A DNA stretch of 64,000 bases, from the NCBI GenBank assembly GCA_964412525.1, contig CAYPOX010000001.1, forward strand, positions 11,356-75,355. The letters run 5' to 3'. Source of the stretch: an uncultured Caulobacterales bacterium. Its GTDB lineage: Bacteria; Pseudomonadota; Alphaproteobacteria; Caulobacterales; CAYPOX01. A model generated the notes under the pieces. The model was not told where the DNA came from. It saw only the letters and a program-made list of their open reading frames with translations, and did no database searches. The position numbers and the translations under genes are program-made. Positions 1 to 41,638 of this stretch are shown here, piece after piece (position 1 is the stretch's first letter; the number at the start of each line of letters is the position of its first letter).

Positions 1-1
1 C

Positions 2-895
2 CCGACGGCGCGGAACTTTACGCTTGGCGCGGCGGCCGACGCTCAAGCGGTCGCCGACGAATTGGCGGCCCAGGGATTTCGAGCCGGCGTCGACTTTTTT
101 TATGATCCAACCGGGGTGGCGCTGCCAGCCAACCAAATCGAGATCGACGTCGTCGCCGGCCGCTTGGAGGTCGACAATTCGATCAGCTTGCAGCGCAACG
201 TGAACGGCAATCCGGCCGTTCAAGACATCGCGGGCGCCGCGGGCGGTCCGCCAACACCGGAACCGACCCAGTCGGGCCTGTTCGTCGTGAATTTCGGCGG
301 CGTGTTTGATCCATTGGACACAGAGGGTGCGAATGCGAATTTCGGGCCCGATGCGGGAGCGTTGCAGCTGCGGGGTTTGGCCGGCTCCATCGCCGTAAAC
401 CTTCCCCAAATCGACCCGGATGCTGGCGGGAATTTTGAGAACATCCGCAATGGCGTTCAGGCGGACGGGGCGGTTGCGCCTTTCCTGGATTCTCAGGACG
501 CCACCCAGTTGCAATTGTTCGCCGACGCTCTCACCGGCGGCGATGTGAACGGCGTCTTGGCCGATCTCGACTACACGATCGGCGGCACGCTTCAGATCGC
601 GCCGGCAGCGGGGCAAGGCTTCTTCGCCCGGAATTTGCCCGTCTCGGGGACAATGCTGGAATTGGCGGACTCCATCGTGAATGTGCAGCAACTGGAGCGG
701 ACGACCATCCAGGAGACCCAGTTCGAACAACAGGCCTTCGTCGACACGCTGCAGGAGCAGCGTCTGAATGAGAACGGCGTCAATGTGGACGTCGAACTCG
801 CCAATCTGATCGAAATCGAAGAGCTCTTCGCAGCCAATTCGCGCGTCATTCAGACGATCGCGCGTCTGCTCGACGAACTGCTCGCCATTCGCTGA
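2..895 (+). CDS. flgK: Flagellar hook-associated protein 1 (FlgK), C-terminal part; 5' end lies outside the window
   Basis: The frame is open from nt 2, with no stop before the track's TTG at 62. The C-terminus NVDVELANLIEIEELFAANSRVIQTIARLLDELLAI fits the conserved FlgK C-terminal helix. flgL follows directly. Confidence 0.8.
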   Translation, partial: PTARNFTLGAAADAQAVADELAAQGFRAGVDFFYDPTGVALPANQIEIDVVAGRLEVDNSISLQRNVNGNPAVQDIAGAAGGPPTPEPTQSGLFVVNFGGVFDPLDTEGANANFGPDAGALQLRGLAGSIAVNLPQIDPDAGGNFENIRNGVQADGAVAPFLDSQDATQLQLFADALTGGDVNGVLADLDYTIGGTLQIAPAAGQGFFARNLPVSGTMLELADSIVNVQQLERTTIQETQFEQQAFVDTLQEQRLNENGVNVDVELANLIEIEELFAANSRVIQTIARLLDELLAIR

Positions 896-906
896 GGGAC
901 TTGAAT

Positions 907-2802
907 ATGGTTATGAATGTCGCCTCGCTGGTTCTCGCTCAGACATCCCGATCCAACATTCTTGGGTTGCAGCGAGACTTGGTCGACGCCAGCCGAGAGG
1001 TCGCCACGGGCTTCCAATCCGATGTCGCCGACTCGCTTCGCGCCGGCCTCAGCGTGTCGCTGTCCTTGCGCGCCGAGTTTTCCCGCTTGGAGCAGCAACA
1101 GGCGAATATCGAGTTTTTCCAGCAGCGCGCCAACATCACCCAACAGGTGCTGACGGATGTTTCCGGTTCGATCACCGATCTGGCGGCCCTTCTGGCCCCG
1201 GCCGGCGCGGATCCGGACTCGCCTCAGGACGGCTTGTTGGCCGGCACGGCGCTCGACACCCTGAACCGCGTCATCAGCAGCTTGAACACGGGCTTCGCCG
1301 GAGATTTTCTGTTCTCCGGCACGACGACCAACATTCTTCCTTTCCAGAGCCCTCAGGTCGGCAATTCTGCGGCGGGCGGCAATTCACCCTTCAGCATCGT
1401 TGAACAACAGCTGAACGGTTTCATCGCCGATCTGGAAGCTGCGGCCGGCGTCGGGCCAGGTTATGTGTTTGGCAGCGCCTATGAGGTGGAGCGCCTGATC
1501 CAAGGCGACGCGTTCTTCAGCAATGGCGGAGCTGCGCCTTCGGCGGCCGGTTTGGAAGGCTTCAACGCCATTTTCAATGATACGTCGCAAAACGCGGATC
1601 GGCTCTATTCCAACGCGTTCTACAATGGCCGTGAGAGCGCACGCGCAGCCGACGTTCTGTTGGAGATCGAGCAATCAGAGGCTGGCTTGTTGGGCGCTAC
1701 GGCTCCAATCACGGGTCTGCTCGATACGAGCGGAGACGGCGCCGTCACGACGGCGGACGGCGCGGCGGCCACCTTTCCGCCGCTTGATTCGTCACCGACG
1801 GCGCGAAAATTCGCAATGGACACGGACAACATTCAATATGTCCGCGACATCCTCTTGGCGCGTGGATTTATTGAGGGCGTGGATTTTGTCGTGAATGGCG
1901 GTCTGACGGAGATCGACGTTGACTTGAATGCCGAGGCCGCCCGACTCACGACCCGACTGAACGACACGGAAGTGCTGGAATACGGCATTGACGGAGCGGA
2001 ACAGGCGTTTCGCGACATCATGCAAGGCCTCTACATGCTGTCCGTTTATGACCTCAGCCTGTTCACCAATCCGGACGGGACAACCAATGACGCGGCGCGG
2101 CAGCGTTATCTGCTTGGCGAGGCGGCGTCTCCGGCGGGCATTCTTGACGCGATCGGAACAATCGATCCGGCCTTGGACACGAATGGCGACGGACGCCTTC
2201 GCCTTGATGACGCGGGCGTCGCTGAGGTGGGCGCTGACGTCCTCACCTTCGATATCGATACGGGCGGCGGCGCCAACGCGGCGGCGATCGCCGCGCAACT
2301 TCGCGCGCTCGGTTTCATCGAGGGTGACACGGGCGCTGGTTTGGGGGATTTGCCGCCGGGAAGTCCGGGGGTTCCCGCGGGCGGCGTTCGCGCCGATTTT
2401 GAAGCACAAGACGTGAGCTTTGTGCGGAACCCGGATGGTACCGGCGCGACGGCCAACCTTATCCGCGTCAGCGTGCGCGCCGAGGCGGCCCCAGAGGGGA
2501 CAGGTCTCGATCTTGCAAACTCGATCAGTTCACCATTGCCGGGTGCGCTTGGATTTTTAGAACGCGGTCTCGATGCGCTGCTGAACCTGCAAACGACCTT
2601 AGGGTCCCGTCAGGTCCAAGTTCAGGATGAGCTCGACACCAACATTCTCCGGCAGGATCTGATCAACACGACAATTTTGCGTGTGGAAGGCGTTGATCAG
2701 GCCGAGGCCGCGACCCGGCTCAATCTGCTGGAAGCCCAGTTGGAAGCCACCTTTGCGATCACGTCGCGGCTTCAAAGCCTTAGCCTGAGCGATTTCCTCT
2801 AA
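907..2802 (+). CDS. flgL: Flagellar hook-associated protein 3 (FlgL), unusually long at about 631 aa
   Basis: GAGGGA lies 7 nt before the ATG at 907. The N-terminus has a flagellin-like helix (LGLQRDLVDASREVATGFQSDV) and the C-terminus has RLNLLEAQLEATFAITSRLQSLSLSDFL. The gene sits after flgK. Confidence 0.8.
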   Translation: MVMNVASLVLAQTSRSNILGLQRDLVDASREVATGFQSDVADSLRAGLSVSLSLRAEFSRLEQQQANIEFFQQRANITQQVLTDVSGSITDLAALLAPAGADPDSPQDGLLAGTALDTLNRVISSLNTGFAGDFLFSGTTTNILPFQSPQVGNSAAGGNSPFSIVEQQLNGFIADLEAAAGVGPGYVFGSAYEVERLIQGDAFFSNGGAAPSAAGLEGFNAIFNDTSQNADRLYSNAFYNGRESARAADVLLEIEQSEAGLLGATAPITGLLDTSGDGAVTTADGAAATFPPLDSSPTARKFAMDTDNIQYVRDILLARGFIEGVDFVVNGGLTEIDVDLNAEAARLTTRLNDTEVLEYGIDGAEQAFRDIMQGLYMLSVYDLSLFTNPDGTTNDAARQRYLLGEAASPAGILDAIGTIDPALDTNGDGRLRLDDAGVAEVGADVLTFDIDTGGGANAAAIAAQLRALGFIEGDTGAGLGDLPPGSPGVPAGGVRADFEAQDVSFVRNPDGTGATANLIRVSVRAEAAPEGTGLDLANSISSPLPGALGFLERGLDALLNLQTTLGSRQVQVQDELDTNILRQDLINTTILRVEGVDQAEAATRLNLLEAQLEATFAITSRLQSLSLSDFL

Positions 2803-2814
2803 GTGAAAAGACAG

Positions 2815-2847
2815 GGGCCGCGCGGCAATCGTGCGCGGTCCTTTCTT
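2815..2847 (+). terminator. Rho-independent terminator after flgL
   Basis: The stem is GGGCCGCGC / GCGCGGTCC (9 bp, one G-U pair) with a 9-nt loop, followed by TTTCTT. Confidence 0.6.
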
Positions 2848-2864
2848 CACTCCGTTAGAGCTTG

Positions 2865-3596
2865 CTAAGCGGCTGTCGCGTCGGCGATATCGTCTGACGC
2901 GCCGTCGGACGTGGCCTCAACCGGCTCATCGAGCTTGTACCCGCGACCATATACGGTCTCAATATACTGGGCGCCCGCGGTGGCATTGGCGATCTTTTTG
3001 CGAAGCTTGCAGATGTAAACGTCAATTACCTTGTCGAAGGGTTGCGAATCCATCATGCCGTAAACGGCTTCATACACGGAATTCTTCGACACGACCTTGC
3101 CCGCTTGCAACGCCAAATGGGTGAAAATGGCGTGCTCGCGGTGAGAGAGTTTCAGGCGCCGGCCATCCACCTCCGGATCGCGACCGTCGAAATAGACCGT
3201 GAGGCGACCGATCCGCAGACTGGCCGTCACATGGCCGTGGCCGCGGCGGCGAATGGCCTGGATCCGGGCGACCGCTTCGCCAGGATTGATCGGTTTGACC
3301 AAAGCGTCGTCAGCCCCGGAACCCAGAAGCCGGATCACGTCGTCCGAAGACCGAAGATCCAAAAGAGCCAAAATCGGACCACGGAACTCCTCGCCGCGCA
3401 GTCGCTCCACGAATCGCGATTGATCCGCCACGCCGCCGACCAGCACCGCGCATTCTCCACCCGCTTCGCTCTGGCGCGACAACACCGCATCAATGTCCGC
3501 CTCGGACAGCGGCTCGCAACGAACCTTGCTCCGGGCGAGGGCCTTAGAAAGCGCGTCAAAGACGCTGTCTCGCGGTTCGGCCAATAAAACACGCAT
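2865..3596 (-). CDS. OmpR-family, CtrA/FtcR-like winged-helix regulator with a degenerate receiver domain
   Basis: The C-terminus KVIDVYICKLRKKI...IETVYGRGYKL resembles the CtrA DNA-binding domain as I recall it. The N-terminus MRVLLAEPRDS and the strand CAVLVGGVADQ lack the usual acidic pair and phospho-Asp. The gene is divergent from flgI. Confidence 0.75.
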   Translation of the reverse strand: MRVLLAEPRDSVFDALSKALARSKVRCEPLSEADIDAVLSRQSEAGGECAVLVGGVADQSRFVERLRGEEFRGPILALLDLRSSDDVIRLLGSGADDALVKPINPGEAVARIQAIRRRGHGHVTASLRIGRLTVYFDGRDPEVDGRRLKLSHREHAIFTHLALQAGKVVSKNSVYEAVYGMMDSQPFDKVIDVYICKLRKKIANATAGAQYIETVYGRGYKLDEPVEATSDGASDDIADATAA

Positions 3597-3615
3597 GAAG
3601 ACCCCCAGCGGTTTT

Positions 3616-3678
3616 GATTTTACGACAATACGACTGAACGCGAAAACGGTTGCCGATCCGTTACGATTTTACGACAAT
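3616..3678. promoter_or_regulatory. Two perfect 14-bp direct repeats, GATTTTACGACAAT, in the regulator/flgI divergent intergenic region
   Basis: The copies are at 3616-3629 and 3665-3678, spaced 49 bp start to start. They are AT-rich within GC-rich DNA. Confidence 0.6.
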
Positions 3679-3697
3679 CTGACGACGGCGCGCTGTG

Positions 3698-3744
3698 GCG
3701 TAGACACCTCTGTAAAGTCACCTTAACCTCGAATGCGTAGACAC
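3698..3744. promoter_or_regulatory. Two perfect 10-bp direct repeats, GCGTAGACAC, just upstream of flgI
   Basis: The copies are at 3698-3707 and 3735-3744, spaced 37 bp. The second ends 25 nt before the flgI ATG. Confidence 0.5.
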
Positions 3745-3769
3745 GCAAAACGCAAGCTTGAGGGTTTTC

Positions 3770-4888
3770 ATGGCGCGACACCTATTGGTCCTCCTCGCAT
3801 TCGCGGCCTTCTGCTTCGGGTCGCAAGCGCAGGCGCAGGCGCGCATCAAGGATTTGGTCTCGGTCGAAGGCGTCCGCGGCAACATCCTTGTGGGCTACGG
3901 TCTCGTTGTGGGCTTGAATGGCACGGGCGACCGTTTGAACAACGTCCAGTTCACCGAGGAAAGCATTCAATCCGCGTTGGATCGACTCGGCGTCACCTAT
4001 CGCGACAACGTCCAGCTCCGGACCCGGAACGCGGCCGCGGTCATGGTCACCGCCACGCTGCCGCCTTTCGCGCGCTCCGGCGAAACCATCGACGTCAATG
4101 TCGGCGCGCTTGGCGACGCGCGCGATCTTCGTGGCGGGCAACTTTTGGCGACGTCGTTGGTCGGGGCCAATCAACAGACCTACGCCGTCGCCCAGGGCAG
4201 CCTCGTCACGGGCGCTTTCGCGGCCCAGGGCCAAGGAGCCAGCGTCACCCAGGGCGTACCGACCGCCGGCCGAATCCCGAACGGCGCCATCATAGAACGT
4301 GAGGTGGATTTCGAGTTGGACGAACTGCCGATCATTCAGTTGAGCCTGCGGAACGCTGATTTCACAACCGCCGTTCGGATTGAGGACGCCATCAATGCGC
4401 GGATGGGGCGCGGGGTGGCCGTGGCGATTGATCCGGGAACCGTCGAAACCGTCGTGCCGGACGATTATCGCCGCCGTGGCGGCGCTGTCCGGTTTCTGGC
4501 TCAAGTCGAGAACATCGAAGTTCTGCCGGACGGCGTGGCGCGCGTGGTGATTGACGAGCGCACGGGCACGATCGTGATCGGCGAGGCCGTGCGCGTGAGC
4601 CGCGTGGCGGTGGCGCAGGGCAACATTACAATCCAGGTGACGGAGACGCCGCAAGTTTCTCAACCGGGCCCCTTCGCTCAGCAGGGTCAGACGGTTGTCG
4701 TTCCGCGCACGGACGTGCAAGTCGATGAGGGCGAGGACGGACGGTTCCAAATCATCGGCGACGCGGTCACGCTTCAGGAATTGATCAACGGCTTGAACGC
4801 CTTGGGCGTCGGGCCGCGGGACATCATTTCGATCCTTGACGCCGTGAAAAGTTCCGGCGCGCTGCACGCGGAGCTCGTGATTCAATGA
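3770..4888 (+). CDS. flgI: Flagellar P-ring protein FlgI
   Basis: A signal peptide (ARHLLVLLAFAAFCFGSQAQA) is followed by RIKDLVSVEGVRGNILVGYGLVVGLNGTGD. GAGGG lies 5 nt before the ATG at 3770. Confidence 0.95.
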   Translation: MARHLLVLLAFAAFCFGSQAQAQARIKDLVSVEGVRGNILVGYGLVVGLNGTGDRLNNVQFTEESIQSALDRLGVTYRDNVQLRTRNAAAVMVTATLPPFARSGETIDVNVGALGDARDLRGGQLLATSLVGANQQTYAVAQGSLVTGAFAAQGQGASVTQGVPTAGRIPNGAIIEREVDFELDELPIIQLSLRNADFTTAVRIEDAINARMGRGVAVAIDPGTVETVVPDDYRRRGGAVRFLAQVENIEVLPDGVARVVIDERTGTIVIGEAVRVSRVAVAQGNITIQVTETPQVSQPGPFAQQGQTVVVPRTDVQVDEGEDGRFQIIGDAVTLQELINGLNALGVGPRDIISILDAVKSSGALHAELVIQ

Positions 4889-5247
4889 ATGACGCCGCAC
4901 TTCCGTCTGAAGCGGTTCGTCTTTTGGATGTGGCGACACGCATCGACCGGCTCGAGAGAATGAAACGGCTCGAGGCGTTGAACGGACCCGATCGCGCCCA
5001 AGCGGCCCGCGACGCCGCGCGCGACTTTGAAGCGATGTTCGCCAATCAGATGTTGCAAGGCATGTTCCATGGCGTGGGCGAGGACGCCCTGTTCGGCGGC
5101 GGGCACGCTGCGGAGATCTGGAAAGACTTCTTGATCGAGCAGTACGCCGAAGCGATCGCCGAACGCGAAGCGTTCGGCGTGGCGGACATGATTTATGAGG
5201 GTGCGTTGTCGGCCTATGCGCAGACGGCGAACGGCGCAGTGGAGTGA
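4885..5247 (+). CDS. Rod-binding protein (FlgJ N-terminal-domain-like / CheL-like)
   Basis: It carries ARDFEAMFANQMLQGMF and FGGGHAAEIWKDFLIEQYAEAIA, which fit the rod-binding domain. Its start overlaps the flgI stop as ATGA. Confidence 0.75.
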   Translation: MNDAALPSEAVRLLDVATRIDRLERMKRLEALNGPDRAQAARDAARDFEAMFANQMLQGMFHGVGEDALFGGGHAAEIWKDFLIEQYAEAIAEREAFGVADMIYEGALSAYAQTANGAVE

Positions 5248-5696
5248 TGGCTTCGGACAGCTCGCCGCTCTATGATGACGGCGAAGCGGCCTCCGCTTTC
5301 GTCGAACTGCTGGACGCGCTCGACGCGCTCAGCGAAGCCTTCGAACTCGAAAACGCGACCATACCAACCGCGGACGTCGCAGCGCTCCAAGAGGCTGCGG
5401 CGTTGAAACAGGAACGCGTCTTTGCGCTGGAGCGCGCACGGGAGGCTTTCCACGCGATGTCGGAGCGCTTGTCCGAAGACGAACGCGGATTGATTGCGGC
5501 GAGAGCGCGCCGCCTCCAAGACGTGCTGGAACGCAATGTTCGCCTGACCCGCGGCGCGCAACGGGCCGTGACCTCGATCACCTCCGTCATCCGGCGCGCG
5601 ATCCAGCGAGACGAATCGGCCGGCCTGTACAGCCGAGACGGCGAGACGGAGCCGCCCGTCGGCGGCGGCGCGCCGAGAGTCGACGCCAAGCTTTGA
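5244..5696 (+). CDS. Hypothetical helical protein, possibly a FlgN-like flagellar export chaperone
   Basis: It is 150 aa, acidic and helical (FVELLDALDALSEAFELENATI...LKQERVFALERAREAF). It overlaps the upstream gene by 4 nt. Assignment is by position and composition only. Confidence 0.4.
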   Translation: MMASDSSPLYDDGEAASAFVELLDALDALSEAFELENATIPTADVAALQEAAALKQERVFALERAREAFHAMSERLSEDERGLIAARARRLQDVLERNVRLTRGAQRAVTSITSVIRRAIQRDESAGLYSRDGETEPPVGGGAPRVDAKL

Positions 5697-5733
5697 TTTC
5701 TTAATATTGCCCACTTCGCGAGGGGACTGATCC

Positions 5734-7293
5734 ATGGGCCAGTGGACAGGCGATTACGTCGTCGACATCGATTATTCAGCGAGCATGTATGAGTGGGTCA
5801 CGCCGCTTCGCATGCATACCCAGTTTCGGCTGGCATACTCCCAGAACGCGCCGGACCCGTTTCGGCCTGGACTTCAAATCGCGGACCTCGCATGCGGGAT
5901 GGGCGTCCACGCATGCATGCTCGCCGCGTGCTATCCGAACGCGCGCGTCTTCGCGTGCGACATCAACCCGCTCCATGTGGCCAACGCGATCGAACTCGCA
6001 CGGGACGCGGAGCTGACCAATATTGATATTGAGCTCGCAAGTTTCGCGGAGATCGCCAATAGAAAAGAAGATTTCCAGAGGCGTTTTGATTATACTTTTT
6101 TGCACGGAGTCTACTCATGGGTCAAAGATAGCATTCGAGAAGATCTTCACAATTTTATAGATTTTGCAATAGCGCCTGGAGGTCTTGTCTATCTTAATTA
6201 TGAATGCTTGCCTGGCGCCGCGGAAGTTGGCGTTTTGAACCGACTATACTCAGAGATCGTGGCCCAGTCGCGTATCGACGCTGGGGCTGATTTGGGCCAA
6301 GACAACGACTTGCTCGATCAATTGGTGGAAACTGGGGCCGGTTACTTTAACAGACTGAAAACCTCAGGCTCGTTCAACGGTTTTAAGAAGGCGACGCCAA
6401 ACTACAGGCTTCATGCGTTTGCGTCGGGCGAAGGGCTGCCGCTTTACTCCTCAAGCGTTATCCGACGGTTCGCGGCGAACGGACTGGCCTATATCGGCGG
6501 CGCAGAGCCCTTGCATGTTCTTGGAGAGTCTTACATCCCGCCGGCGCTCTCTGGCTTGTTGAAGCGGATCCGCGATCGCGCGGCGCGTGAAACCTTCTAC
6601 GACGCTATGACCAATTATGGGGGACGCGGCGACATTTTTGCATTGGGTTCGCGGCCGCTGAACAAAAACCGGATTCGTACGTGGTTCGGCCAACAACGAT
6701 TTATGGCGCGTATGGATACGATCCCCGACCCGCTCACGATCCGGTCGCCATTTGGTGCGCTGAACGTTCAAAACGAACTGTCCGTCACCCTCCATCGAAT
6801 TCTCCGAAACGGTCCGGCGCGGGTCCATGATTTGGCCCAAGCGCTCAACCTGTCCACCAACGATCCGAAACTTCTCAATGCGGTTCGCGTCGGCTATGCG
6901 TCTGGAATCATTGAGGCGGCGGCGGACGAGAAACATGTCGACGCCGCGACGGAGCCGGTCCGTCGGTTCAACCGCGTGCTGGCGGATCGTGTGGCGAACG
7001 GCCATCCGGTGTCCAGTCTCGCAAGCCCTGTGACTGCGACGGCGTCGCCGATGACGCTCGGCGACGTGACAGCGATCGTTTTGGACAGCAGTCACACGCC
7101 ATTGTCGGACAAAACGGTGACGCACGGCTTGCGCCAATTGATTAAGCGGGGCGGCCGAGATCCCGACCAGGTCTTTGACGGCTTTTCTGAAATGGTGCGC
7201 AACAGCGTGGAACGCTATGTGACCGACGGCCATGCGACGCGCTTGACGCGCCTCGGAGTCCTCGCGCCAAATTCGATTTCAACGAACGGATGA
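5734..7293 (+). CDS. Class I SAM-dependent methyltransferase with a long C-terminal (regulatory-type) domain
   Basis: It has the SAM motif I IADLACGMGVHACMLAACYPNARVFACDINP, then FDYTFLHGVYSWV and GGLVYLNYE. The remaining 300-odd residues are uncharacterised. It is the last gene before flagellin. Confidence 0.7.
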   Translation: MGQWTGDYVVDIDYSASMYEWVTPLRMHTQFRLAYSQNAPDPFRPGLQIADLACGMGVHACMLAACYPNARVFACDINPLHVANAIELARDAELTNIDIELASFAEIANRKEDFQRRFDYTFLHGVYSWVKDSIREDLHNFIDFAIAPGGLVYLNYECLPGAAEVGVLNRLYSEIVAQSRIDAGADLGQDNDLLDQLVETGAGYFNRLKTSGSFNGFKKATPNYRLHAFASGEGLPLYSSSVIRRFAANGLAYIGGAEPLHVLGESYIPPALSGLLKRIRDRAARETFYDAMTNYGGRGDIFALGSRPLNKNRIRTWFGQQRFMARMDTIPDPLTIRSPFGALNVQNELSVTLHRILRNGPARVHDLAQALNLSTNDPKLLNAVRVGYASGIIEAAADEKHVDAATEPVRRFNRVLADRVANGHPVSSLASPVTATASPMTLGDVTAIVLDSSHTPLSDKTVTHGLRQLIKRGGRDPDQVFDGFSEMVRNSVERYVTDGHATRLTRLGVLAPNSISTNG

Positions 7294-7299
7294 AAGAAT

Positions 7300-7311
7300 C
7301 GCTTTTACGCG
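7300..7311 (+). promoter_or_regulatory. 12-mer CGCTTTTACGCG upstream of the flagellin gene; shared with the fliI/flgB intergenic region
   Basis: The identical 12-mer occurs as its reverse complement at 11828-11839. The TTTTACG core also appears in the 14-bp repeats at 3616 and 3665. Confidence 0.45.
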
Positions 7312-7422
7312 GTTTTAAGTCGACCATGAGACCTTCCGCCAGCGTTTTCCAGGGTAAGCTTGGGGACGCGCGGCGTCAGAAGGCGCTTGTTCAACTCACC
7401 CAGAATCAAGGGAGCACGACAC

Positions 7423-8982
7423 ATGTCGAGCATCATCACCAACGAAAATGCGATCGTCGCGCTGCAAACGCTGCGCTCGGTCACGGCCAACCTTCAAGAG
7501 ACGCAAGACCGCATCTCCACGGGCCTGGAAGTTCGCCAAGCTTCTGACAACCCGGCCTTCTTCCTGGTCGCGAACCAGGTCGGCGGCGACCTCGCGGTCA
7601 TCACCGGCATCCGGGACAACCTGGAGCTGACGATCCAAGCGACGGCGACGGCGCAAAATGCGGCCAGCGACATCTTTGACGAGTTGGAAGCGATCCAGAC
7701 GACGAACGTGACCGCCGACTCCGGCGTTGCGCGCGACGAACTGGCCTTCTCGCTGCAAAACACGGTGTCCTTCATCGAAGGCGTCATCAACACGGCCAAC
7801 TTCGCGGGCAACAACCTGCTGGCGGGCTCCGACACGTTCACGGTCACCACGGCCGTCACGCGCGTCGGCGGCGAGTTCACGCTGTCCACCTTCACGTTGC
7901 AGCGTCAAAACCTCGACGACATCTCCATCGGCGGCGACCAGTTCCTGTCCGCCGGTGCGGGCTCGGACTTTGACTTCATGGTCGGCGCCAATGACGGCAC
8001 GCGTCAAGCGGACGAGCAGTTCTCTGCTCTGTCGCGTGCGTTCCGCGGCGAAGGCTTGGCCACGCAGTTCGACCGCAACAACAATGGCGCGGTTGAATTT
8101 ACGTCCGCTGGCGTCGCCAATGGCGGCGACTTCTTCACCTCCGCGGACGGCATCGCCGGCCTGATGGCGGGCGATCTTGCCTTTGAAGGCTCCCGCGCCG
8201 ATGCGGCGTTCCTTCTTTCGGTCGGCATTCAAGCGACCTTCATCGCGGGCGGTGCGACGGATGAAACGGGCGAAACGATCGACATCGTTTCCTTCGCTCG
8301 TTCCGGTTTGTCGGATCTCAACACACGCACGAATGGTCAAGGCGTCGCCACGTCTGAAGAGTTTGCGTCCGCTCTGGTCGACGCGAACGTCTTCACGACG
8401 GAAGTGTTTGATGCGGCGAACCGTGAAATCCTGAACGCCGACCAAGAGACGCTGTCCTTCCTGGAAATGGCGGGCTTCACGATGGCGGTCCTGACGGGCA
8501 CGACCATCACGCTCGTCTCGGAAGAGTCGCTGTTGACGCCGGCCACGATCGACTTCGCGGGTCAGACGGCGACGGCGTTTGAAACGGCCGCGCAAACCGT
8601 TCTCGAGAACTTCGTTCTCGACAGCGGCCGTTTGCTTGAGCAGGCGGACGCGTCCGGCTTCTCTGGCGTCCTGCGTCAGATCGACATCACGGCCGAAACG
8701 GGCAATGTCGGCTCCGCGATCACGATCTCGGCCAGCCTCGTTGACCGCGCCAACTTGGTCGCGTCGAATGTCGGCACGCTGCAATCCACGCTCGAAGCGC
8801 GTCAGAACTTCCTGTCTGACCTTGCTGACTCGCTCGACGTCGGCATCGCGGCGCTGATCGAAGCCAACCTGGACGAAGAGTCCACCCGTCTGCAGGCCCA
8901 GCAGGTCCAGCAGCAGTTGGCCATTCAGTCGCTCACGATCGCCAACGCTCAGCCGCAGGTTCTCCTGCAGCTGTTCGCGTAA
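7423..8982 (+). CDS. fliC: Flagellin (519 aa)
   Basis: AAGGGAG lies about 8 nt before the ATG at 7423. The N-terminus is MSSIITNENAIVALQTLRSVTANLQETQDRISTGL and the C-terminus is LDEESTRLQAQQVQQQLAIQSLTIANAQPQVLLQLF. The track's start at 7360 is rejected. Confidence 0.95.
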   Translation: MSSIITNENAIVALQTLRSVTANLQETQDRISTGLEVRQASDNPAFFLVANQVGGDLAVITGIRDNLELTIQATATAQNAASDIFDELEAIQTTNVTADSGVARDELAFSLQNTVSFIEGVINTANFAGNNLLAGSDTFTVTTAVTRVGGEFTLSTFTLQRQNLDDISIGGDQFLSAGAGSDFDFMVGANDGTRQADEQFSALSRAFRGEGLATQFDRNNNGAVEFTSAGVANGGDFFTSADGIAGLMAGDLAFEGSRADAAFLLSVGIQATFIAGGATDETGETIDIVSFARSGLSDLNTRTNGQGVATSEEFASALVDANVFTTEVFDAANREILNADQETLSFLEMAGFTMAVLTGTTITLVSEESLLTPATIDFAGQTATAFETAAQTVLENFVLDSGRLLEQADASGFSGVLRQIDITAETGNVGSAITISASLVDRANLVASNVGTLQSTLEARQNFLSDLADSLDVGIAALIEANLDEESTRLQAQQVQQQLAIQSLTIANAQPQVLLQLFA

Positions 8983-8998
8983 GATCGCTGAACAGGAT

Positions 8999-9031
8999 CG
9001 GGGCCGGCGAATGCCGGCCCCGATTTCTTTT
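8999..9031 (+). terminator. Rho-independent terminator after flagellin
   Basis: The stem is CGGGGCCGGC / GCCGGCCCCG (perfect 10 bp) with loop GAAT, followed by ATTTCTTTT. Confidence 0.85.
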
Positions 9032-9081
9032 GAACTCGGCGCAACCAATCGTTAAAATCTTTTCTTTAAGGATGGGTCATT

Positions 9082-9471
9082 ATGAGTGAAGCTTACAGCG
9101 TCGATGCGTATCGCCAGACCATCCGTGAGACCGAAGAACCGCGTAAGGCGGAACGTCGCGTCTTCTCCACCGTCACTGGACAGTTGGAGCGGTACAAGGA
9201 TGCCTTCGCAGGCCGCGATCTTGAAGCGCAAGGCCATCTTCGCGAGGCTTTGGCGAAAAACCGCACGCTCTGGAGCTTGTTGCTCAACGATGTGACCCAC
9301 AATGAGAACGCTCTGCCAAATGATTTGAAGGCGCGGATCATCTCGATCGCCATGTTCGTCGATCGGCACACGGTGAACGTGCTCAAAGGCGAAGGCGACG
9401 TTCACGTTCTCGTCGACGTCAACCGTTCCGTGATGGACGGATTGAAGGCCGCGCAGCCCTCTGAAGACTGA
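9082..9471 (+). CDS. flaF: Flagellar biosynthesis regulator FlaF
   Basis: The sequence AYRQTIRETEEPRKAERRVFSTVTGQL...NRTLWSLLLNDV is typical of FlaF. flbT is adjacent. Confidence 0.85.
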   Translation: MSEAYSVDAYRQTIRETEEPRKAERRVFSTVTGQLERYKDAFAGRDLEAQGHLREALAKNRTLWSLLLNDVTHNENALPNDLKARIISIAMFVDRHTVNVLKGEGDVHVLVDVNRSVMDGLKAAQPSED

Positions 9472-9495
9472 TTTCAAAGCCACCCGCGCGCCGGC

Positions 9496-9954
9496 ATGGG
9501 ACTGAAAATTCGGCTGCGGCCGCATGAAAAAGTCATCATCAACGGATGCGTGGTCGAAAACGGCAATCGCCGCGTCACCCTCAACGTCTACAATTACGCC
9601 CAGATCTTGCGTAGCCGTGACATCATGGCGGAGGCGGACGCCACCACCCCGCTCCGGCAATGCTATTTTCTCCTTCAACTAGTTCTCATTGATCCACGGA
9701 CCCATGACCGATGTTTGAAATGGGTCAGCGGCGTCATCTCACGCGCCTATGGCCTGTTGCGTGATGAGAGCCTGAGACGCCGATTGATCGCGACGATCGA
9801 ACGGGCTCGAGCGCATGATTACTACAAGGCGTTGACCGAACTCAAAGCCGTGATACGCTTTGAAGATGACGAAGGAGTGATTCCGGCTGGCGGCCTGGAA
9901 GCGTTTGCAAGCGTGCTTCAGTCTCTTGGTTCGCCGGCGTTAAATGAGCGGTAG
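9496..9954 (+). CDS. flbT: Flagellin synthesis repressor FlbT
   Basis: The N-terminus MGLKIRLRPHEKVIINGCVVENGNRRVTLNV is the FlbT signature. Confidence 0.85.
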   Translation: MGLKIRLRPHEKVIINGCVVENGNRRVTLNVYNYAQILRSRDIMAEADATTPLRQCYFLLQLVLIDPRTHDRCLKWVSGVISRAYGLLRDESLRRRLIATIERARAHDYYKALTELKAVIRFEDDEGVIPAGGLEAFASVLQSLGSPALNER

Positions 9955-10294
9955 AACCATGGAACCAATGTTGGGCGTAAATTCTGAGGTCACCACCCCA
10001 CAACTGTCGCCAGGCGATCGGTCTGTGGCCACCGGCGCGACGTCTTCGGAACCTTCCACCCTTGCAGGCGCCGGTGTGGTCGCCTTTGACGAGGAAATCA
10101 CAGCGGTCGATGCGGAGCTTGATCGGCCCGATCGGTTCAATCTTCAATTCGAACCGGGCTCGATCCGCATATTTACGGAAGTCTTGGATCGTGACGGCGA
10201 CATCGTCACCCGTATTCCGCCCGCATCGCTGCGGACGGCGCTCGCCGCATTCGGACTGAGCGACGGGCCGTTCAGCGTTCAATCCTTCGTTTAG
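9944..10294 (+). CDS. flaG: FlaG-like flagellar protein
   Basis: The C-terminal segment FNLQFEPGSIRIFTEVLDRDGDIVTRIPP fits the FlaG family pattern (..D..tGevirqIP). It overlaps the flbT end by 11 nt. Confidence 0.6.
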   Translation: MSGRTMEPMLGVNSEVTTPQLSPGDRSVATGATSSEPSTLAGAGVVAFDEEITAVDAELDRPDRFNLQFEPGSIRIFTEVLDRDGDIVTRIPPASLRTALAAFGLSDGPFSVQSFV

Positions 10295-11757
10295 ACCGAC
10301 GCGCCGCCGACCGGCTGGCGGATATCGATCGCTGAAGGGGACGCATCGCCGCCCTGGTCGCCGAAGACGGATTGCACGTCCGCAGTTTCATCAACCGCGC
10401 GTGGCGAGGCTTGAGCAACGCCGTCCGACCCGACGATCTGCGCAAGACGGCGAAACGCCTCGGCCGTGTCGCCGCGTTCCTCCCGGCGTTGGTCGATCAA
10501 TTGCTCCAATCCATCAAAAATTTCGATCGCCCGGTCCGTCTCCGGGTCCGATCCGCGTTTGTACGCGCCGATCCGGATGATCTCTTGCATGTTTTCGTAC
10601 AACGCTTGCGCGCGAATGGCTTTTTCCCGCGCCGCGTTCTCGGCGGGCGAATGGCATTGGGGCAAAGAGCGAGAGATGCTCTTGAGAATGTCGATGGCTG
10701 GAAAGCGACCGCGCTCGGCGATCGACCGACTCATCGCCACATGCCCGTCCAGAATGCCGCGCACCGCGTCCGAAATCGGTTCGTTCATGTCGTCGCCTTC
10801 GACCAAAACGGTGAACACGCCCGTGATGTCGCCTTCATCACCAAACCCCGGACCGGCCCGTTCCAAAAGCCGCGGCAATTCGGAGAAGACGGTCGGGGGA
10901 TAGCCCTTGGCGGTCGGCGGTTCGCCAGCGGTCAATCCAATTTCACGCTGCGCCATCGCGAAGCGCGTGATCGAGTCGATCAGGCATAGGACATGCTTGC
11001 CCAAATGCCGCTGATGCTCGGCAAGGGCAAGGGTGAGGTACGCCGCTTGGCGGCGCATGAGCGGCGGCTGATCGCCCGTGGCCACGACGACGATCGCGCG
11101 CGCGAGCCCTTCTTCACCCAAATCGTCCTGCAAAAACTCTTGAACCTCGCGACCGCGTTCGCCGATGAGGCCGATGATGATCACGTCGGCGTCCGCGTAG
11201 CGCGCGAACATGGAGAGCATCGTCGACTTGCCCACGCCCGAGCCCGAGAACACGCCCATGCGCTGGCCGCGACAGATCGGTGAAAAAAGATCAACGCCCC
11301 GAACGCCGGAACTCATACGAGGGCCGACGGGTCGGCGGTCATAGGCGTTGGGAGGCCGCGATTTCAGCGGCGTCAGATGTTCGCCCTCGGGAAGCGGGCC
11401 TTTGCCGTCGATCGGGCGGCCGAGGCCGTCAATCACGCGGCCGATCCAACGCTCGGACGACCGAATCGTGAAGCTCGTGCCGTCGTAAATCACCGGGCTG
11501 CCGACCGAGACGCCTTCGATCTCGTCCAGGGCCATGAGCAATGTGCGTCCGTTGCGCACGCCGACGGCCTCGCAGAGCACGTGGGTGCCGTCCCGCCGGA
11601 CCGCATAACACTTGTCGCCCATGGCCAGGCGACGCTCCAGCCCGCGGGCCTCAATCGTCATGCCCATGAAGCCGGCCACTTCGCCGCGCCAGCGCGGTCC
11701 TGGCACGGCGGCGACTTCGGCCGCCGCCTCTTCGAAAATGCGGTCCATCGCTGACAT
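10291..11757 (-). CDS. fliI: Flagellum-specific ATPase FliI (488 aa)
   Basis: It has Walker A GVFSGSGVGKST and Walker B DVIIIGLIGERGREV. The start is taken at MSAMDRIF (ATG at 11757). The 804-aa track ORF is an upstream run-on across flgB and flgC. Confidence 0.93.
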   Translation of the reverse strand: MSAMDRIFEEAAAEVAAVPGPRWRGEVAGFMGMTIEARGLERRLAMGDKCYAVRRDGTHVLCEAVGVRNGRTLLMALDEIEGVSVGSPVIYDGTSFTIRSSERWIGRVIDGLGRPIDGKGPLPEGEHLTPLKSRPPNAYDRRPVGPRMSSGVRGVDLFSPICRGQRMGVFSGSGVGKSTMLSMFARYADADVIIIGLIGERGREVQEFLQDDLGEEGLARAIVVVATGDQPPLMRRQAAYLTLALAEHQRHLGKHVLCLIDSITRFAMAQREIGLTAGEPPTAKGYPPTVFSELPRLLERAGPGFGDEGDITGVFTVLVEGDDMNEPISDAVRGILDGHVAMSRSIAERGRFPAIDILKSISRSLPQCHSPAENAAREKAIRAQALYENMQEIIRIGAYKRGSDPETDRAIEIFDGLEQLIDQRREERGDTAEAFRRLAQIVGSDGVAQASPRAVDETADVQSVFGDQGGDASPSAIDIRQPVGGASV

Positions 11758-14047: not shown

Positions 14048-14110
14048 GCGGTTTTCACGTTCGACCGCTATGCTTTCAGGTTCGAGGGGCGGACCTGCCG
14101 GAGATCATAA

Positions 14111-24537: not shown

Positions 24538-25368
24538 ATGATCCGCCGCGCCATTCCAATTTGCGCCGCCCTTGTCGCCGCTGCGTTTTGGCTGCTGCCT
24601 GACGTCGCTTTTGCGCAATCCCTCTCGCTCGATTTGGGCGACGAGGCGACAGGGACGTTCTCGGCGCGTTTGATCCAGATCCTGGCGTTGATGACCGTCA
24701 TCAGCGTCGCGCCAGGGATCTTGTTGATGGGCACGTCCTTTCTTCGGATCGTGGTCGTGCTGTCCATGCTGCGCGTGGCGCTCGGTCTTCAGCAAACCCC
24801 GCCCAATATGGTCATTATCGGAATGTCGCTGTTCTTGACGGCATATGTGATGGGGCCGACCTTCGAGCGCGCGTGGGTCGAGGGCGTCTCGCCTTTGATC
24901 AACGAAACGGTGACGGAGGAACAGGCCGCGGCCCGCACGATCCGTCCGTTTAAAGACTTCATGTTAAGCCAGGTGCGTGAACAAGATTTGCGCCTCTTCC
25001 AAAATCTGTCGGACGAGCCGTCTCCGAATGCGGTCACGCCAGCGGCGCCCGTGCCCGGGATCGGCCCGCCCACGGCGACCGCGCTCTTGGGAGACGAAGC
25101 GGATGCGGATCGGATCGATCCTCCGCTTCAAGTCCTGGTGCCCGCCTTCATCATCTCGGAGCTTCGGCGCGCCTTCGAGATCGGTTTTTTGTTGTTTCTT
25201 CCGTTTCTCATCATCGATATGACCATCGCCTCCTTGCTGATGTCGATGGGCATGATGATGCTGCCGCCCGTCATCATTTCACTCCCGTTTAAGGTCATCT
25301 TTTTCGTTTTGATCGAAGGATGGTATCTGGTGTCGGGAAGTCTCGTGCGTTCGTTCGGTACCGTTTGA
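24538..25368 (+). CDS. fliP: Flagellar export apparatus protein FliP
   Basis: It has a signal peptide, then LMTVISVAPGILLMGTSFLRIVVVLSMLRVALGLQQTPPN and FLLFLPFLIIDM. A Pro-rich insert of about 30 aa is present. Confidence 0.93.
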   Translation: MIRRAIPICAALVAAAFWLLPDVAFAQSLSLDLGDEATGTFSARLIQILALMTVISVAPGILLMGTSFLRIVVVLSMLRVALGLQQTPPNMVIIGMSLFLTAYVMGPTFERAWVEGVSPLINETVTEEQAAARTIRPFKDFMLSQVREQDLRLFQNLSDEPSPNAVTPAAPVPGIGPPTATALLGDEADADRIDPPLQVLVPAFIISELRRAFEIGFLLFLPFLIIDMTIASLLMSMGMMMLPPVIISLPFKVIFFVLIEGWYLVSGSLVRSFGTV

Positions 25369-39262: not shown

Positions 39263-41638
39263 TCAATAAGGGTCGGCGCGGCGCCGGCGGCCTTCGGCCG
39301 ACCAATGGTCCACCGTCGCGAACACCTTTTTCGGGTCGAGCGGTTTGGTGACGTAATCGTCCATCCCTTCCGCGAGAAAGCGTTCCCGGTCGCCGCGCAT
39401 GGCGTTGGCGGTGACCGCGATGATCGGCGGGGACCGCTCGCCCATCACGTCTTTGATCGTGCGCGCGGCTGTGGCCCCGTCCATGACCGGCATCTGCACG
39501 TCCATCAACACGATGTCGTATTCGCCCTGGGTGGCGCTGTCGACGGCCTGCGCCCCGTCACCGACGATGTCGATCCGATGACCTCGCTTGGCCAGGAGGG
39601 TTCGGATCAACAATTGGTTCGCCGGATTGTCCTCGGCGACGAGGATCCGCGCCGCCTCGCCATGGGACGCTTCCCGGGCGGCCGTGGTGTCCGCCGCCTG
39701 TTCGTCCGCTTCCATCGCGTCGTCGAAGGGCGTCTCGAACCAGAACAGGCTGCCCTGGCCGATTTCGCTTTCCACACCGATCTCGCCGCCCATCAGATCG
39801 ACGATCCGCTTGCAAATGGCGAGGCCGAGGCCCGTGCCGCCAAAACGGCGCGTCGTGGAGGCGTCCGCCTGATTGAACTCGCGGAAGAGCTTGTCGATGG
39901 CCGACGGGTCGATGCCGATGCCCGTGTCCTCCACTTCAAACCGCCAGACGGAGCGCCCCATGGCGTCGTCGCGATCCAATTCGATGGCCCGCACGGTGAC
40001 GCCGCCCGATTCGGTGAATTTGATGGCGTTCGAAATCAGATTGAATAGAACCTGACGTATGCGGCCGTCGTCGCCCAGAATGCGCCGGCCGGCGGCGTCC
40101 GGCGTGTCGACATTGAGCGTGATGGATTTGCTCTCGGCGTTCGGCCGAAGGATCCGGCTGACCGCCTCGATCTCGTCGCTGAGGCGGATCGGACGGCGTT
40201 CGAACTCCACCTTGCCGGATTCGAGCTTCGTCAGGTCCAAAATGTCGTTGAGCAACCGCATCAAATGCTTGCCGGAGGTTCGCGAGACCTCCACATAGCG
40301 CCGCTGCTCGTCGGTCAAATCGGTGTCCAGCAGCAATTCCGACATGCCCAAAACGGCGTTCATCGGCGTGCGGATTTCATGGCTCATCGTCGCCAAGAAG
40401 GACGACTTGGCGCGGGCGGCGGCGATGGCCTCCTCGCGCGCGCGCATCAGATCGTTCTCGCGCGCCACTTCGGCCGTCACGTCGATGCAGGTCATGAAGA
40501 CCGCCTCGTCGTCGTCCCATTCCACCAGGCGGCTGAAAACGTCCACAAAGACGGCCGATCCGTCCCGGCGCCGGTGCGCCACCCGCTTTTTGCCCTCGCC
40601 GCCATGGCCATAGACCTGCCGCCGCCAGGCGCCGTCGGGATCCGAGCGGACGGCCTCGGGCATGAGAGGCAGAAGATCCGGCAAGGCGAGCAATTCCTCC
40701 ACGCCGCTATAGCCGTGGATCTCGGCGAAGGCGTCATTCAGCAGGATGGGACGAAAGCGGCGATGGATGCAGTGGCCGGCATAGGCGCCGTGGAACAAAT
40801 CTCGAAAGCGCCGTTCGCTTTCCACCAAGCGCGATTCGCTGCGCTTGCGCTCGGTGACATCTGAATAAGTGCCCACCACGCGGATCGGCGCGCCCCGATC
40901 GTCGCGGGCCACCGCCTGGCCCCGGGCCAAAAGCCACCGCCATCCGCGACGGCCGCGCACCCGCACCTCCATCATGAAGGTGTCGATCGCGCCGCTCAGA
41001 TGGGCTTCGATTTCCGCGCTGGCCAAATCCCGGTCGTCCGGGTGGATCAGTCGGAATAGATCGCTGCGCGCGATTTCAAGCGATTTGGCGCGCGTCGCAG
41101 GGAAGTCGAGGATCGCCGCCCAGTGATGGCTGATATGAACGAGGCCCGCGCCCGCGCGCCAATCCCAATAGCCCTCGCGCGCGCCGGAAAAGACGAACTC
41201 CAACTGCGTCTGAAGCTTGAGGAGCTCCGCTTCGGCGATCTGCGCCTTCGCCGCGTCGTCGCCTTCCGGCGCATCTTTGGCGCGTTGGCGGCGCGGCGGG
41301 CGCAAATGGAGCACGGCCCCGCCGCCAGGCAGCGACTCGCCGATTCCCATCACCGTGTGGTTGCGGTCGTCCGCGCGCACCAATGGCAGGCCGGGCGCGC
41401 GCAAATCGTCGTCGAACAACGCGGTGATCGAGCGCCCGTCCGCGGTTTTGACGACCTCGACAAGCAAAAGGCCGCCCAAACTGCTCTCCGCCAAGTCCAA
41501 CAGAAGGCCGGCCCCGCCCGACGCCTCGACAATGCGCGCGGTATCGTCCGCGCCGTCCAACAGCAGCATGCATAGCTGCTGCGACCGGGCGAGGGCGCCG
41601 AGACCGACCTCCAACGGTTGCAGAACCGCGCTCACCAT
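39263..41638 (-). CDS. Hybrid sensor histidine kinase / response regulator with PAS domains
   Basis: It has the H-box [18 protein letters not shown], ATPase motifs ([14 protein letters not shown]) and a C-terminal receiver ([11 protein letters not shown]...[13 protein letters not shown]...KP). Confidence 0.92.

Follow-up and report, generated by a model that had tools for sequence, protein, structure and literature searches.

Our analysis concerns a gene in a flagellar gene cluster of an uncultured Caulobacterales bacterium, carried on a 64,000-nucleotide stretch of DNA that we refer to as the window (GenBank assembly GCA_964412525.1, contig CAYPOX010000001.1, positions 11,356 to 75,355 of the forward strand). 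The gene lies between flgL and flgI and, as an initial annotation made from the sequence alone had noted, is divergent from flgI. It encodes a receiver domain followed by a winged-helix DNA-binding domain (Table 1). Sequence comparison and a structure model confirm the product as a CtrA-like DNA-binding regulator whose receiver is folded but without the phospho-acceptor aspartate.

The DNA-binding half, likened in the initial annotation to the C-terminus of CtrA, is indeed a winged helix of the OmpR/PhoB type (Pfam Trans_reg_C, PF00486, at residues 145-222, E = 4.2e-19), and its recognition helix (KVIDVYICKLRKKI, compared with KIIDVFICKLRKKL in CtrA) and wing (YIETVYGRGY, compared with HIETVWGRGY) are of the CtrA type and nearly identical to those of CtrA itself. 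In the receiver half, Pfam Response_reg reaches 18.4 bits against a 30.2-bit cut-off and aligns with residues 62-112 only, so that the half of the domain that would hold the acidic pocket and the acceptor lies outside the match to this hidden Markov model (HMM). The AlphaFold2 model of the regulator (predicted local distance difference test, pLDDT, 87.3, and above 90 across most of residues 1-120; predicted TM-score 0.79) has five strands and five helices in the canonical order of an (alpha/beta)5 receiver, and its overall fold is that of full-length OmpR/PhoB regulators, with DNA-bound PmrA as the top match (TM-score 0.73; PmrA and CosR 0.72-0.73).

Within this fold, Gly54 occupies the phospho-acceptor position, as the initial annotation had read it. 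The residue stands opposite Asp51 of CtrA in a MAFFT alignment of 120 homologues with CtrA, and the register at this position is unchanged in hhalign and in BLASTP against FtcR/Rem. When the family profile is compared with solved structures, 'yaailiG' falls on 'pdaivLD' of PrrA and 'yslivLD' of PmrA, and 'liEPn' on 'vvDDd' (PrrA) and 'viEDd' (PmrA). In the AlphaFold2 model beta3 comprises residues 49-54, and Gly54 closes the strand, where canonical receivers have their aspartate. Caulobacter CtrA, E. coli PhoB and E. coli CheY served as reference sequences, and two genes annotated as CtrA in public plasmid records give the same acceptor result.

The surrounding pocket is a remnant. Pro8 replaces the second pocket acid, Leu79 the Thr/Ser and Ala98 the switch Tyr, and of the five conserved receiver residues the regulator keeps Glu7 and Lys101, the latter with its neighbor Pro102. 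The replacement of the acidic pair claimed in the initial annotation therefore holds for the second acid, while the first, Glu7, is retained and nearly invariant in the family; the retention of the conserved lysine stands. Where CtrA, in Caulobacter and Rhodobacterales the phosphorylated master regulator of cell cycle and motility, combines Asp51 with an intact acidic pocket and Thr/Ser, the regulator has Gly54, Pro8 and Leu79, and with the acceptor aspartate, the second pocket acid and Thr/Ser all gone it should not be switchable by aspartyl phosphorylation. A receiver fold with a residue other than aspartate at the acceptor position makes the domain an aspartate-less receiver (ALR) in the sense of Maule et al. 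(2015). Two of the checks suggested at the outset point the same way: alignment with CtrA, FtcR, Rem and a receiver HMM places no aspartate at the acceptor and leaves Response_reg below its cut-off, and modelling places Gly54 at the end of beta3 beside an incomplete pocket. Directly after beta4 the regulator has an acidic residue (residue 80, codon 3357-3359); this position is Asp or Glu in 25 of 30 family members and in 21 of 21 FtcR/Rem sequences, its equivalent being Gly in CtrA and Ala in PhoB. It is a neighbor of what was once the active site, where it could form a pair with Lys101, which is retained.

The operon divergent from the regulator comprises flgI, a flgJ-like rod-binding gene, flgN, a methyltransferase gene and a flagellin gene. 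Further downstream follow flaF (a tentative assignment), flbT, fliI, flhA-fliR-flhB, fliM, fliL, fliF, fliP and fliG, and the cluster extends from position 1 to about 26.4 kb. No kinase gene was found in this cluster, which bears out the earlier remark that none adjoins the regulator, and the two histidine kinases encoded elsewhere in the window lie about 36 kb and 57 kb away. Neither of the two reaches an NCBIfam cut-off, so the hybrid kinase, which falls under every one of them, cannot be named CckA, and no cognate regulator gene was noted beside either. Both FlgL and the flagellin are of unusual length, and in each a large central region separates the conserved helices of the N- and C-termini. 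The methyltransferase gene, absent at this position in the Marinovum and Sulfitobacter clusters and in a second flagellar gene set described below, could encode a flagellin-modifying enzyme.

Table 1. Features of the regulator locus and of the rest of the window (window positions).
Feature	Position	Strand	Remarks
flgK	ends 895		
flgL	901..2802	plus	633 aa; convergent with regulator
Regulator gene	2865..3596	minus	243 aa; ATG start; begins MRVLLAEPRDS; all peptides quoted in the initial annotation present
OmpR/CtrA-type winged-helix DNA-binding domain	2922-3227	minus	residues about 124-225; followed by a disordered acidic tail
Aspartate-less receiver	3237-3596	minus	residues 1-120 of regulator
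Gly54 codon	3435..3437	minus	phospho-acceptor Asp position, C-terminal end of beta3; from alignments and AlphaFold2 model
Divergent regulator/flgI intergenic region	3597..3769		161 bp to flgI TTG 3758; presumed to hold both promoters
31-nt direct repeat, copy 1	3604..3634	plus	core GATTTTACGACAAT; 8-38 nt upstream of regulator start codon
31-nt direct repeat, copy 2	3653..3683	plus	77% identical; 49 bp from copy 1
GCGTAGACAC 10-nt direct repeat, copy 1	3698..3707	plus	exact; brackets CtrA-type box
CtrA-type box GTAAAGTCACCTTAA(C)	3712..3726	plus	TTAA-N7-TTAA, one mismatch; about 45 bp upstream of flgI, between GCGTAGACAC repeats
GCGTAGACAC 10-nt direct repeat, copy 2	3735..3744	plus	37 bp spacing
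flgI (P-ring)	3758..4888	plus	FlgI match 4e-132; ORF (open reading frame) from TTG 3758, ATG at 3770
Methyltransferase gene	5734..7293	plus	519 aa; S-adenosylmethionine-dependent, 'methyltransferase regulatory domain'; between flgN and flagellin gene
CtrA-type box TTTACGCGGTTTTAA	7304..7318	plus	one mismatch; upstream of flagellin gene
Flagellin gene	7360..8982	plus	540 aa
CtrA-type box TTGACCGAGGTTTAA	21409..21423	plus	one mismatch; divergent fliL/fliF intergenic region
CtrA-type box	25278-25292		one mismatch; about 100 bp upstream of fliG
Hybrid kinase PAS-HisKA-HATPase-REC	39263-41638	minus	791 aa
HAMP-HisKA-HATPase kinase	61089-62558	plus	489 aa

A family of aspartate-less flagellar regulators

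The loss of the acceptor is not peculiar to the window. A homologue search returned 7308 proteins at E <= 1e-10, and in the best 120 of these the acceptor column reads Gly 103 times, Ala and Ser eight times each and Thr once; most of the same 120 show Trans_reg_C as their only Pfam domain. A scan of species-representative genomes gave 244 related loci; 80 of them were kept, 78 could be analysed, and in these the column reads Gly (75), Ser (2) or Ala (1). Neither Asp nor Glu occurs in the column among the about 200 relatives examined, and the Asp-less state is a trait of the whole family and of FtcR/Rem. Database labels for its members are 'response regulator', 'CtrA' or 'cheY' only. The family is found in Azospirillaceae, Parvularculaceae, Tepidicaulis/Parvibaculum, Iodidimonas, Inquilinus, Hyphococcus and several Rhodobacterales (in fla2-type clusters); the best match of the regulator among species-representative genomes is 56% identical.

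Conservation is unevenly spread along the protein, with a within-family identity of 36% in the receiver and 69% in the DNA-binding domain. The sampled family alignment has 36 invariant residues, and the eight of these in the receiver all lie in beta5-alpha5 (G94, D96, D97, P102, E107, R111, R117 and R118); they are invariant in FtcR/Rem, CtrA and PhoB as well. They belong to the alpha4-beta5-alpha5 surface, the face through which active OmpR/PhoB dimers form.

The genomic setting is equally consistent. Flagellar genes surround the regulator in 75 of the 78 loci, with flgI divergent and adjacent, as in the window, in 51 and with the gene elsewhere in the flagellar cluster in 24; the other three have no flagellar gene within 8 kb. 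The order flgK-flgL-regulator recurs in relatives, and the extended arrangement flgE-flgK-flgL-regulator / flgI-flgJ-flgN-flagellin-flaF-flbT is annotated on the Marinovum algicola flagellar chromid pMaD5 and on Sulfitobacter plasmids. A divergent regulator/flgI pair is likewise seen on an annotated flagellar replicon in Azospirillum. Arrangements of the pMaD5/Sulfitobacter type are known as the horizontally mobile fla2-type clusters of Rhodobacterales (PMC12363192), and one paper mentions the gene, naming it 'cheY (response regulator)' (PMC12843797). The family gene is absent from the Phaeobacter fla1 cluster, and no conserved partner gene adjoins the regulator across the loci examined. Matches on Microvirga plasmids were not flagellar and were set aside. 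The gene is a constant component of one kind of flagellar cluster in Alphaproteobacteria.

The initial annotation described the protein as a CtrA paralogue with a pseudo-receiver and named FtcR and Rem as its precedent. The CtrA-like pseudo-receiver protein in a flagellar locus is borne out, the close kinship with CtrA is not, and the precedent turns out to extend to homology. Among NCBIfam models the best match is CtrA (NF045991), which scores 151.9 bits against a 350-bit equivalog cut-off and aligns with residues 61-225 only; an annotated true CtrA scores 386.7 bits. The DNA-binding domain is 41-44% identical to that of CtrA, and in this domain the family stands closer to CtrA (43%) than to FtcR/Rem (30%), whereas the receiver is only 26-27% identical to that of CtrA. 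An FtcR sequence used only as search bait brought up genuine proteins whose sources name them FtcR and Rem. None of the NCBIfam models matches these, so membership was judged by profile comparison and a tree. The regulator is 32% identical to a Brucella-type FtcR over 205 residues, and the profile of the family matches that of FtcR/Rem across 220 aligned columns (hhalign, probability 100%, E = 2.5e-42), so the homology is full-length. In a neighbor-joining tree rooted on PhoB (100 bootstraps), CtrA and FtcR/Rem are monophyletic at 97% and 93% and the family containing the regulator at 66%; this family groups with FtcR/Rem in 86% of bootstraps and with CtrA in 13%. The regulator thus falls outside the FtcR/Rem clade, in a family sister to it. 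Labels at JGI follow the same division, with family members called CtrA and the real FtcR/Rem proteins FtcR.

What unites this sister family with FtcR/Rem is, first, that both are of OmpR type, are orphans and are encoded inside flagellar clusters without an adjacent kinase, as is also the case for LafR. Both moreover share derived receiver features that CtrA lacks: Gly at the acceptor (27 of 30 family members and 21 of 21 FtcR/Rem sequences), the Asp/Glu after beta4, Val/Phe in place of the switch Tyr (position 98) and the motif F-x-DGRDPE-x-x-G. The two differ in that FtcR/Rem form a separate clade, 29-32% identical to the family, and keep the acidic pair as D-E/D where the family has E-P. 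They differ too in predicted DNA recognition, which in the regulator, judged by the helix, would be CtrA-like and not Rem-like: the FtcR/Rem recognition helix is VVESHISKLRKKL, whereas the sister family keeps the CtrA-type helix. FtcR/Rem genes sit upstream of flgE and, unlike those of the sister family, are not divergent from flgI. Rem binds CAAG-N7-CAAG repeats (bioRxiv 10.1101/2021.06.24.449765), and in KEGG the FtcR group does not extend beyond Rhizobiales and a few genera (PMC8639532). From these comparisons we suggest that the aspartate was probably lost before the family and FtcR/Rem branches split, and FtcR/Rem may have arisen from within the sister family.

FtcR (Brucella melitensis) and Rem (Sinorhizobium meliloti, Agrobacterium) belong to the class I flagellar activators of Rhizobiales. 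Rem is described as a response regulator that lacks the aspartate and needs no phosphorylation for its activity (PMC9812332; bioRxiv 10.1101/2021.06.24.449765), FtcR has neither a canonical site nor a partner kinase (PMC13609056), and LafR, the lateral-flagellum regulator of Bradyrhizobium diazoefficiens, does not require phosphorylation (PMC8429497). More generally, aspartate-less or atypical OmpR/PhoB regulators bind DNA without receiver phosphorylation (PMC4395418). HP1043, ChxR, CosR, RitR and GlnR share the two-domain fold of the regulator and are all among its structural matches; they belong to unrelated lineages with independent loss of the aspartate, other substituting residues and other regulons. 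The FtcR, ActR and ALR papers and the Azospirillum two-component survey do not describe the sister family. A second 'CtrA homolog' of R. centenum (RC1_0209), a possible member of the sister family, is reported only as an expression change (PMC4340629).

The comparison also bears on FtcR/Rem themselves. Their Glu50 is treated in the literature as the acceptor-equivalent 'phosphomimic'. In the AlphaFold2 model of a Brucella-type FtcR (P0121 and P0220 compared; pLDDT 84.8), beta3 comprises residues 51-54 and is followed by Gly55, with Glu50 at the N-terminal start of the strand, and in BLASTP, hhalign and the multiple alignment it is Gly55, not Glu50, that stands opposite Asp51 of CtrA. On alignment and model the acceptor-equivalent residue of FtcR/Rem thus appears to be Gly55. 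If so, the silent E50N mutation is unsurprising, since Gly55 would be the true equivalent, and the reading of E50 mutants would change.

The locus L001 (GCA_964568975.1, CAZMSO010000013.1, positions 1-11110) holds a second flagellar gene set, distinct from that of the window (FlgI 57%, FlhA 52%, FlhB 40%, FliR 35% and flagellin 57-59% identical), with its own aspartate-less regulator, P0097, which is divergent from flgI, 50% identical to the window regulator and identical to it in the recognition helix. P0097 is not in the window, and L001 and the window do not overlap. It is likely, if unproven, that the two regulators lie on one contig; were L001 and the window to share it, this would probably be a dual flagellar system with one regulator per set. 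The source genome appears to contain two sets of flagellar genes with one regulator apiece, and LafR offers a parallel: by its published description it is an orphan Rem homologue that runs one of two flagellar systems (PMC8429497), although lafR lies at the end of its cluster and not beside flgI (PMC6406911). Azospirillum carries one or two copies of the sister-family regulator, and several of its genomes have two paralogues (L041/L043, L050/L056 and L059/L061). In A. brasilense ATCC 49958 (NZ_QOKV01000022.1) the copies L041 and L043 share one contig, about 40 kb apart, one beside flagellin-flaF-flbT and the other beside fliG-fliP-fliF; a gene for a sigma-70-family sigma factor follows one Azospirillum copy. 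A review records A. brasilense as lacking rem (PMC8429497).

CtrA-type boxes and repeats at the flagellar promoters

Boxes of the CtrA type, TTAA-N7-TTAA, are strongly enriched upstream of the regulator gene in relatives. Within 300 bp upstream of the gene, in 54 non-redundant loci of relatives compared with shuffles, a perfect box occurs in 17 (shuffle mean 0.6) and a box with up to one mismatch in 41 (shuffle mean 9.5). The enrichment is specific to the spacer, with spacers of 3-5 and 9-11 not rising above background; in some Rhodobacterales loci five boxes follow one another in phase at 11-bp intervals. Across whole loci of the relatives, 25 of 41 perfect boxes fall within the 2% of sequence that is the regulator's upstream region; the other 16 all lie on the flgI/flagellin side, eight of them near -2.2 kb, and none on the flgL/flgK side. 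The closest relative likewise has a box in its regulator/flgI intergenic region.

The window itself contains no perfect TTAA-N7-TTAA box. It contains seven with one mismatch where 1.7 are expected, a number reached in none of 100 shuffles; four of these lie in or just upstream of flagellar genes, and a fifth lies upstream of fliI. Table 1 gives positions for four among the seven.

Two further sets of direct repeats share the intergenic region with the box. Exact copies of the GATTTTACGACAAT core of the 31-nt repeat occur only there, and the closest relatives have no conserved counterpart of the 31-nt repeats. Phylogenetic footprinting of the region returned nothing because the sequences are too diverged, and neither a sigma-70 consensus promoter nor a terminator was found in it. 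A search for 7-mers common to the promoters of the window gave nothing convincing besides GCGGTTTT, which is followed by CGAC a few bases on and lies upstream of the regulator, flagellin and flhA (3609-3616, 7309-7316 and 14049-14056); it may be a piece of a shared promoter element.

A model for the regulator and its alternatives

We consider it likely, from sequence comparison and analogy with its relatives, that the regulator is a phosphorylation-independent transcription factor or activator dedicated to its own flagellar cluster. Phosphorylation-independent control is inferred because the acceptor residue is missing and because of the published work on Rem, FtcR and LafR. In this model the protein would descend from a CtrA-like response regulator that lost its aspartyl-phosphorylation switch and would act as a constitutive dimer, its output being set by its amount and possibly by a protein partner, in the manner of the anti-activator MirA for Rem. 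We propose that it binds TTAA-N7-TTAA-type boxes at the flgI/own, flagellin and fliL/fliF promoters and would thereby activate those operons; this prediction follows from a recognition helix and wing that differ very little from those of CtrA.

Several points weigh against this model. Every box in the window has one mismatch. In the paralogue locus L001 a box lies about 100 bp upstream of the flagellin gene, and none is present between the regulator gene and flgI. Lys101 is kept in 92 of 120 homologues, in addition to Glu7 and the acidic residue 80, and this conservation suggests that the old pocket still has some role. The tree was built by neighbor-joining with a single outgroup (PhoB), and monophyly of the family stands at 66%. 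No functional study of the regulator or its clade was found in the literature searched, which does not imply that none has been published elsewhere. Canonical CtrA, finally, could bind the boxes just as well; the regulator gene would then be under CtrA control, and its product would not be what reads them.

This last point can be extended into the main alternative, which we regard as possible but rather unlikely and in which a canonical, phosphorylatable CtrA reads the boxes and switches on the regulator, flgI and flagellin, and the regulator acts one level down through another site, such as the 31-nt or GCGTAGACAC repeats. In Caulobacter and Rhodobacter/Cereibacter, CtrA is known to control flagellar promoters by way of such boxes (PMC6180460, PMC12363192), boxes in the regulator's own upstream region are what CtrA control would lead one to expect, and the same intergenic region offers two extra sets of direct repeats, a type of site that OmpR-type proteins typically bind. 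A specificity different from that of CtrA is, however, unexpected in a protein with a near-identical recognition helix and wing, and the candidate sites themselves fit poorly: they are specific to the window and not conserved even in the closest relatives, the exact 31-nt core has no copies elsewhere in the cluster, and their spacing, 8-9 bp inside a unit and 37 and 49 bp from copy to copy, departs from the 10-11 bp typical of OmpR-family sites.

A second alternative accepts the loss of the aspartate and holds that the degenerate receiver is still a regulated input that a partner protein, a small ligand or a modification of non-canonical type could control (through Asp/Glu80 or a MirA-like anti-activator, for example), so that the protein would be signal-responsive and not constitutive. 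The receiver has been retained, well folded, across thousands of homologues, with Glu7, Asp/Glu80, Lys101 and Pro102 conserved, and other aspartate-less receivers are governed in such ways: a redox-sensitive cysteine regulates RitR, and MirA regulates Rem (PMC4395418; bioRxiv 10.1101/2021.06.24.449765). We find this alternative doubtful: no conserved partner gene adjoins the regulator, MirA binds to Rem's DNA-binding domain rather than its receiver, and the fast evolution of the receiver everywhere except at the dimer face fits a scaffold better than a sensor.

It is most improbable that the protein is an ordinary phosphorylatable CtrA orthologue in which the missing aspartate is an artefact of alignment and Asp58, four residues after Gly54, is the true acceptor; the initial annotation had itself raised such an alternative alignment. 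The single-sequence phmmer alignment alone shifts the acceptor register, by one residue to Val53, and Val53 and Gly54 are both non-acidic; four independent alignments give Gly at the acceptor. In the model Asp58 lies beyond beta3, in the loop ahead of alpha3, where it takes the 'PDxxG' position; only 52 of 120 homologues have Asp there. The second pocket acid and Thr/Ser are missing as well. Alignments, model and the sub-threshold CtrA score together contradict this reading. Equally hard to sustain is a decaying, non-functional remnant of a response regulator, for which the sub-threshold Pfam receiver score might speak but which is contradicted by the intact ORF, by more than 7000 homologues with 36 invariant residues in the sampled alignment, by a gene position kept across several orders and on mobile flagellar plasmids, and by the confident structure model.

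Returning to the dedicated, phosphorylation-independent regulator, its evolutionary setting invites a broader and more tentative proposal, to which we would give less weight than to the model itself. The family may be a phosphorylation-blind copy of CtrA's DNA-reading head that travels with the flagellar cluster and binds CtrA's boxes, with FtcR/Rem as a fast-evolving offshoot whose DNA specificity changed after the loss of the aspartate. If this is true, such clusters, including the plasmid-borne fla2-type ones, would be expressed independently of the host CckA-ChpT-CtrA pathway or in competition with it, and in genomes with two sets the paralogues, with their identical recognition helices, would have to split the boxes between them.

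The kind of system described here is already known, and the regulator is a variation on the FtcR/Rem theme whose sister group is large and uncharacterised. Orphan aspartate-less flagellar activators are known from Rhizobiales, in the form of FtcR, Rem and LafR, and our comparisons suggest that these are one branch of a much larger alphaproteobacterial group. The sister branch is widespread, counting over 7000 homologues in the database and 244 loci among species-representative genomes, and it is present in tractable organisms such as Azospirillum, Marinovum (pMaD5), Thioclava and Parvularcula. Since the sister family keeps CtrA's DNA-reading surface, it could link flagellar clusters to the cell-cycle regulator CtrA or insulate them from it, and it may account for the way in which flagellar clusters acquired by horizontal transfer carry their own regulation along.

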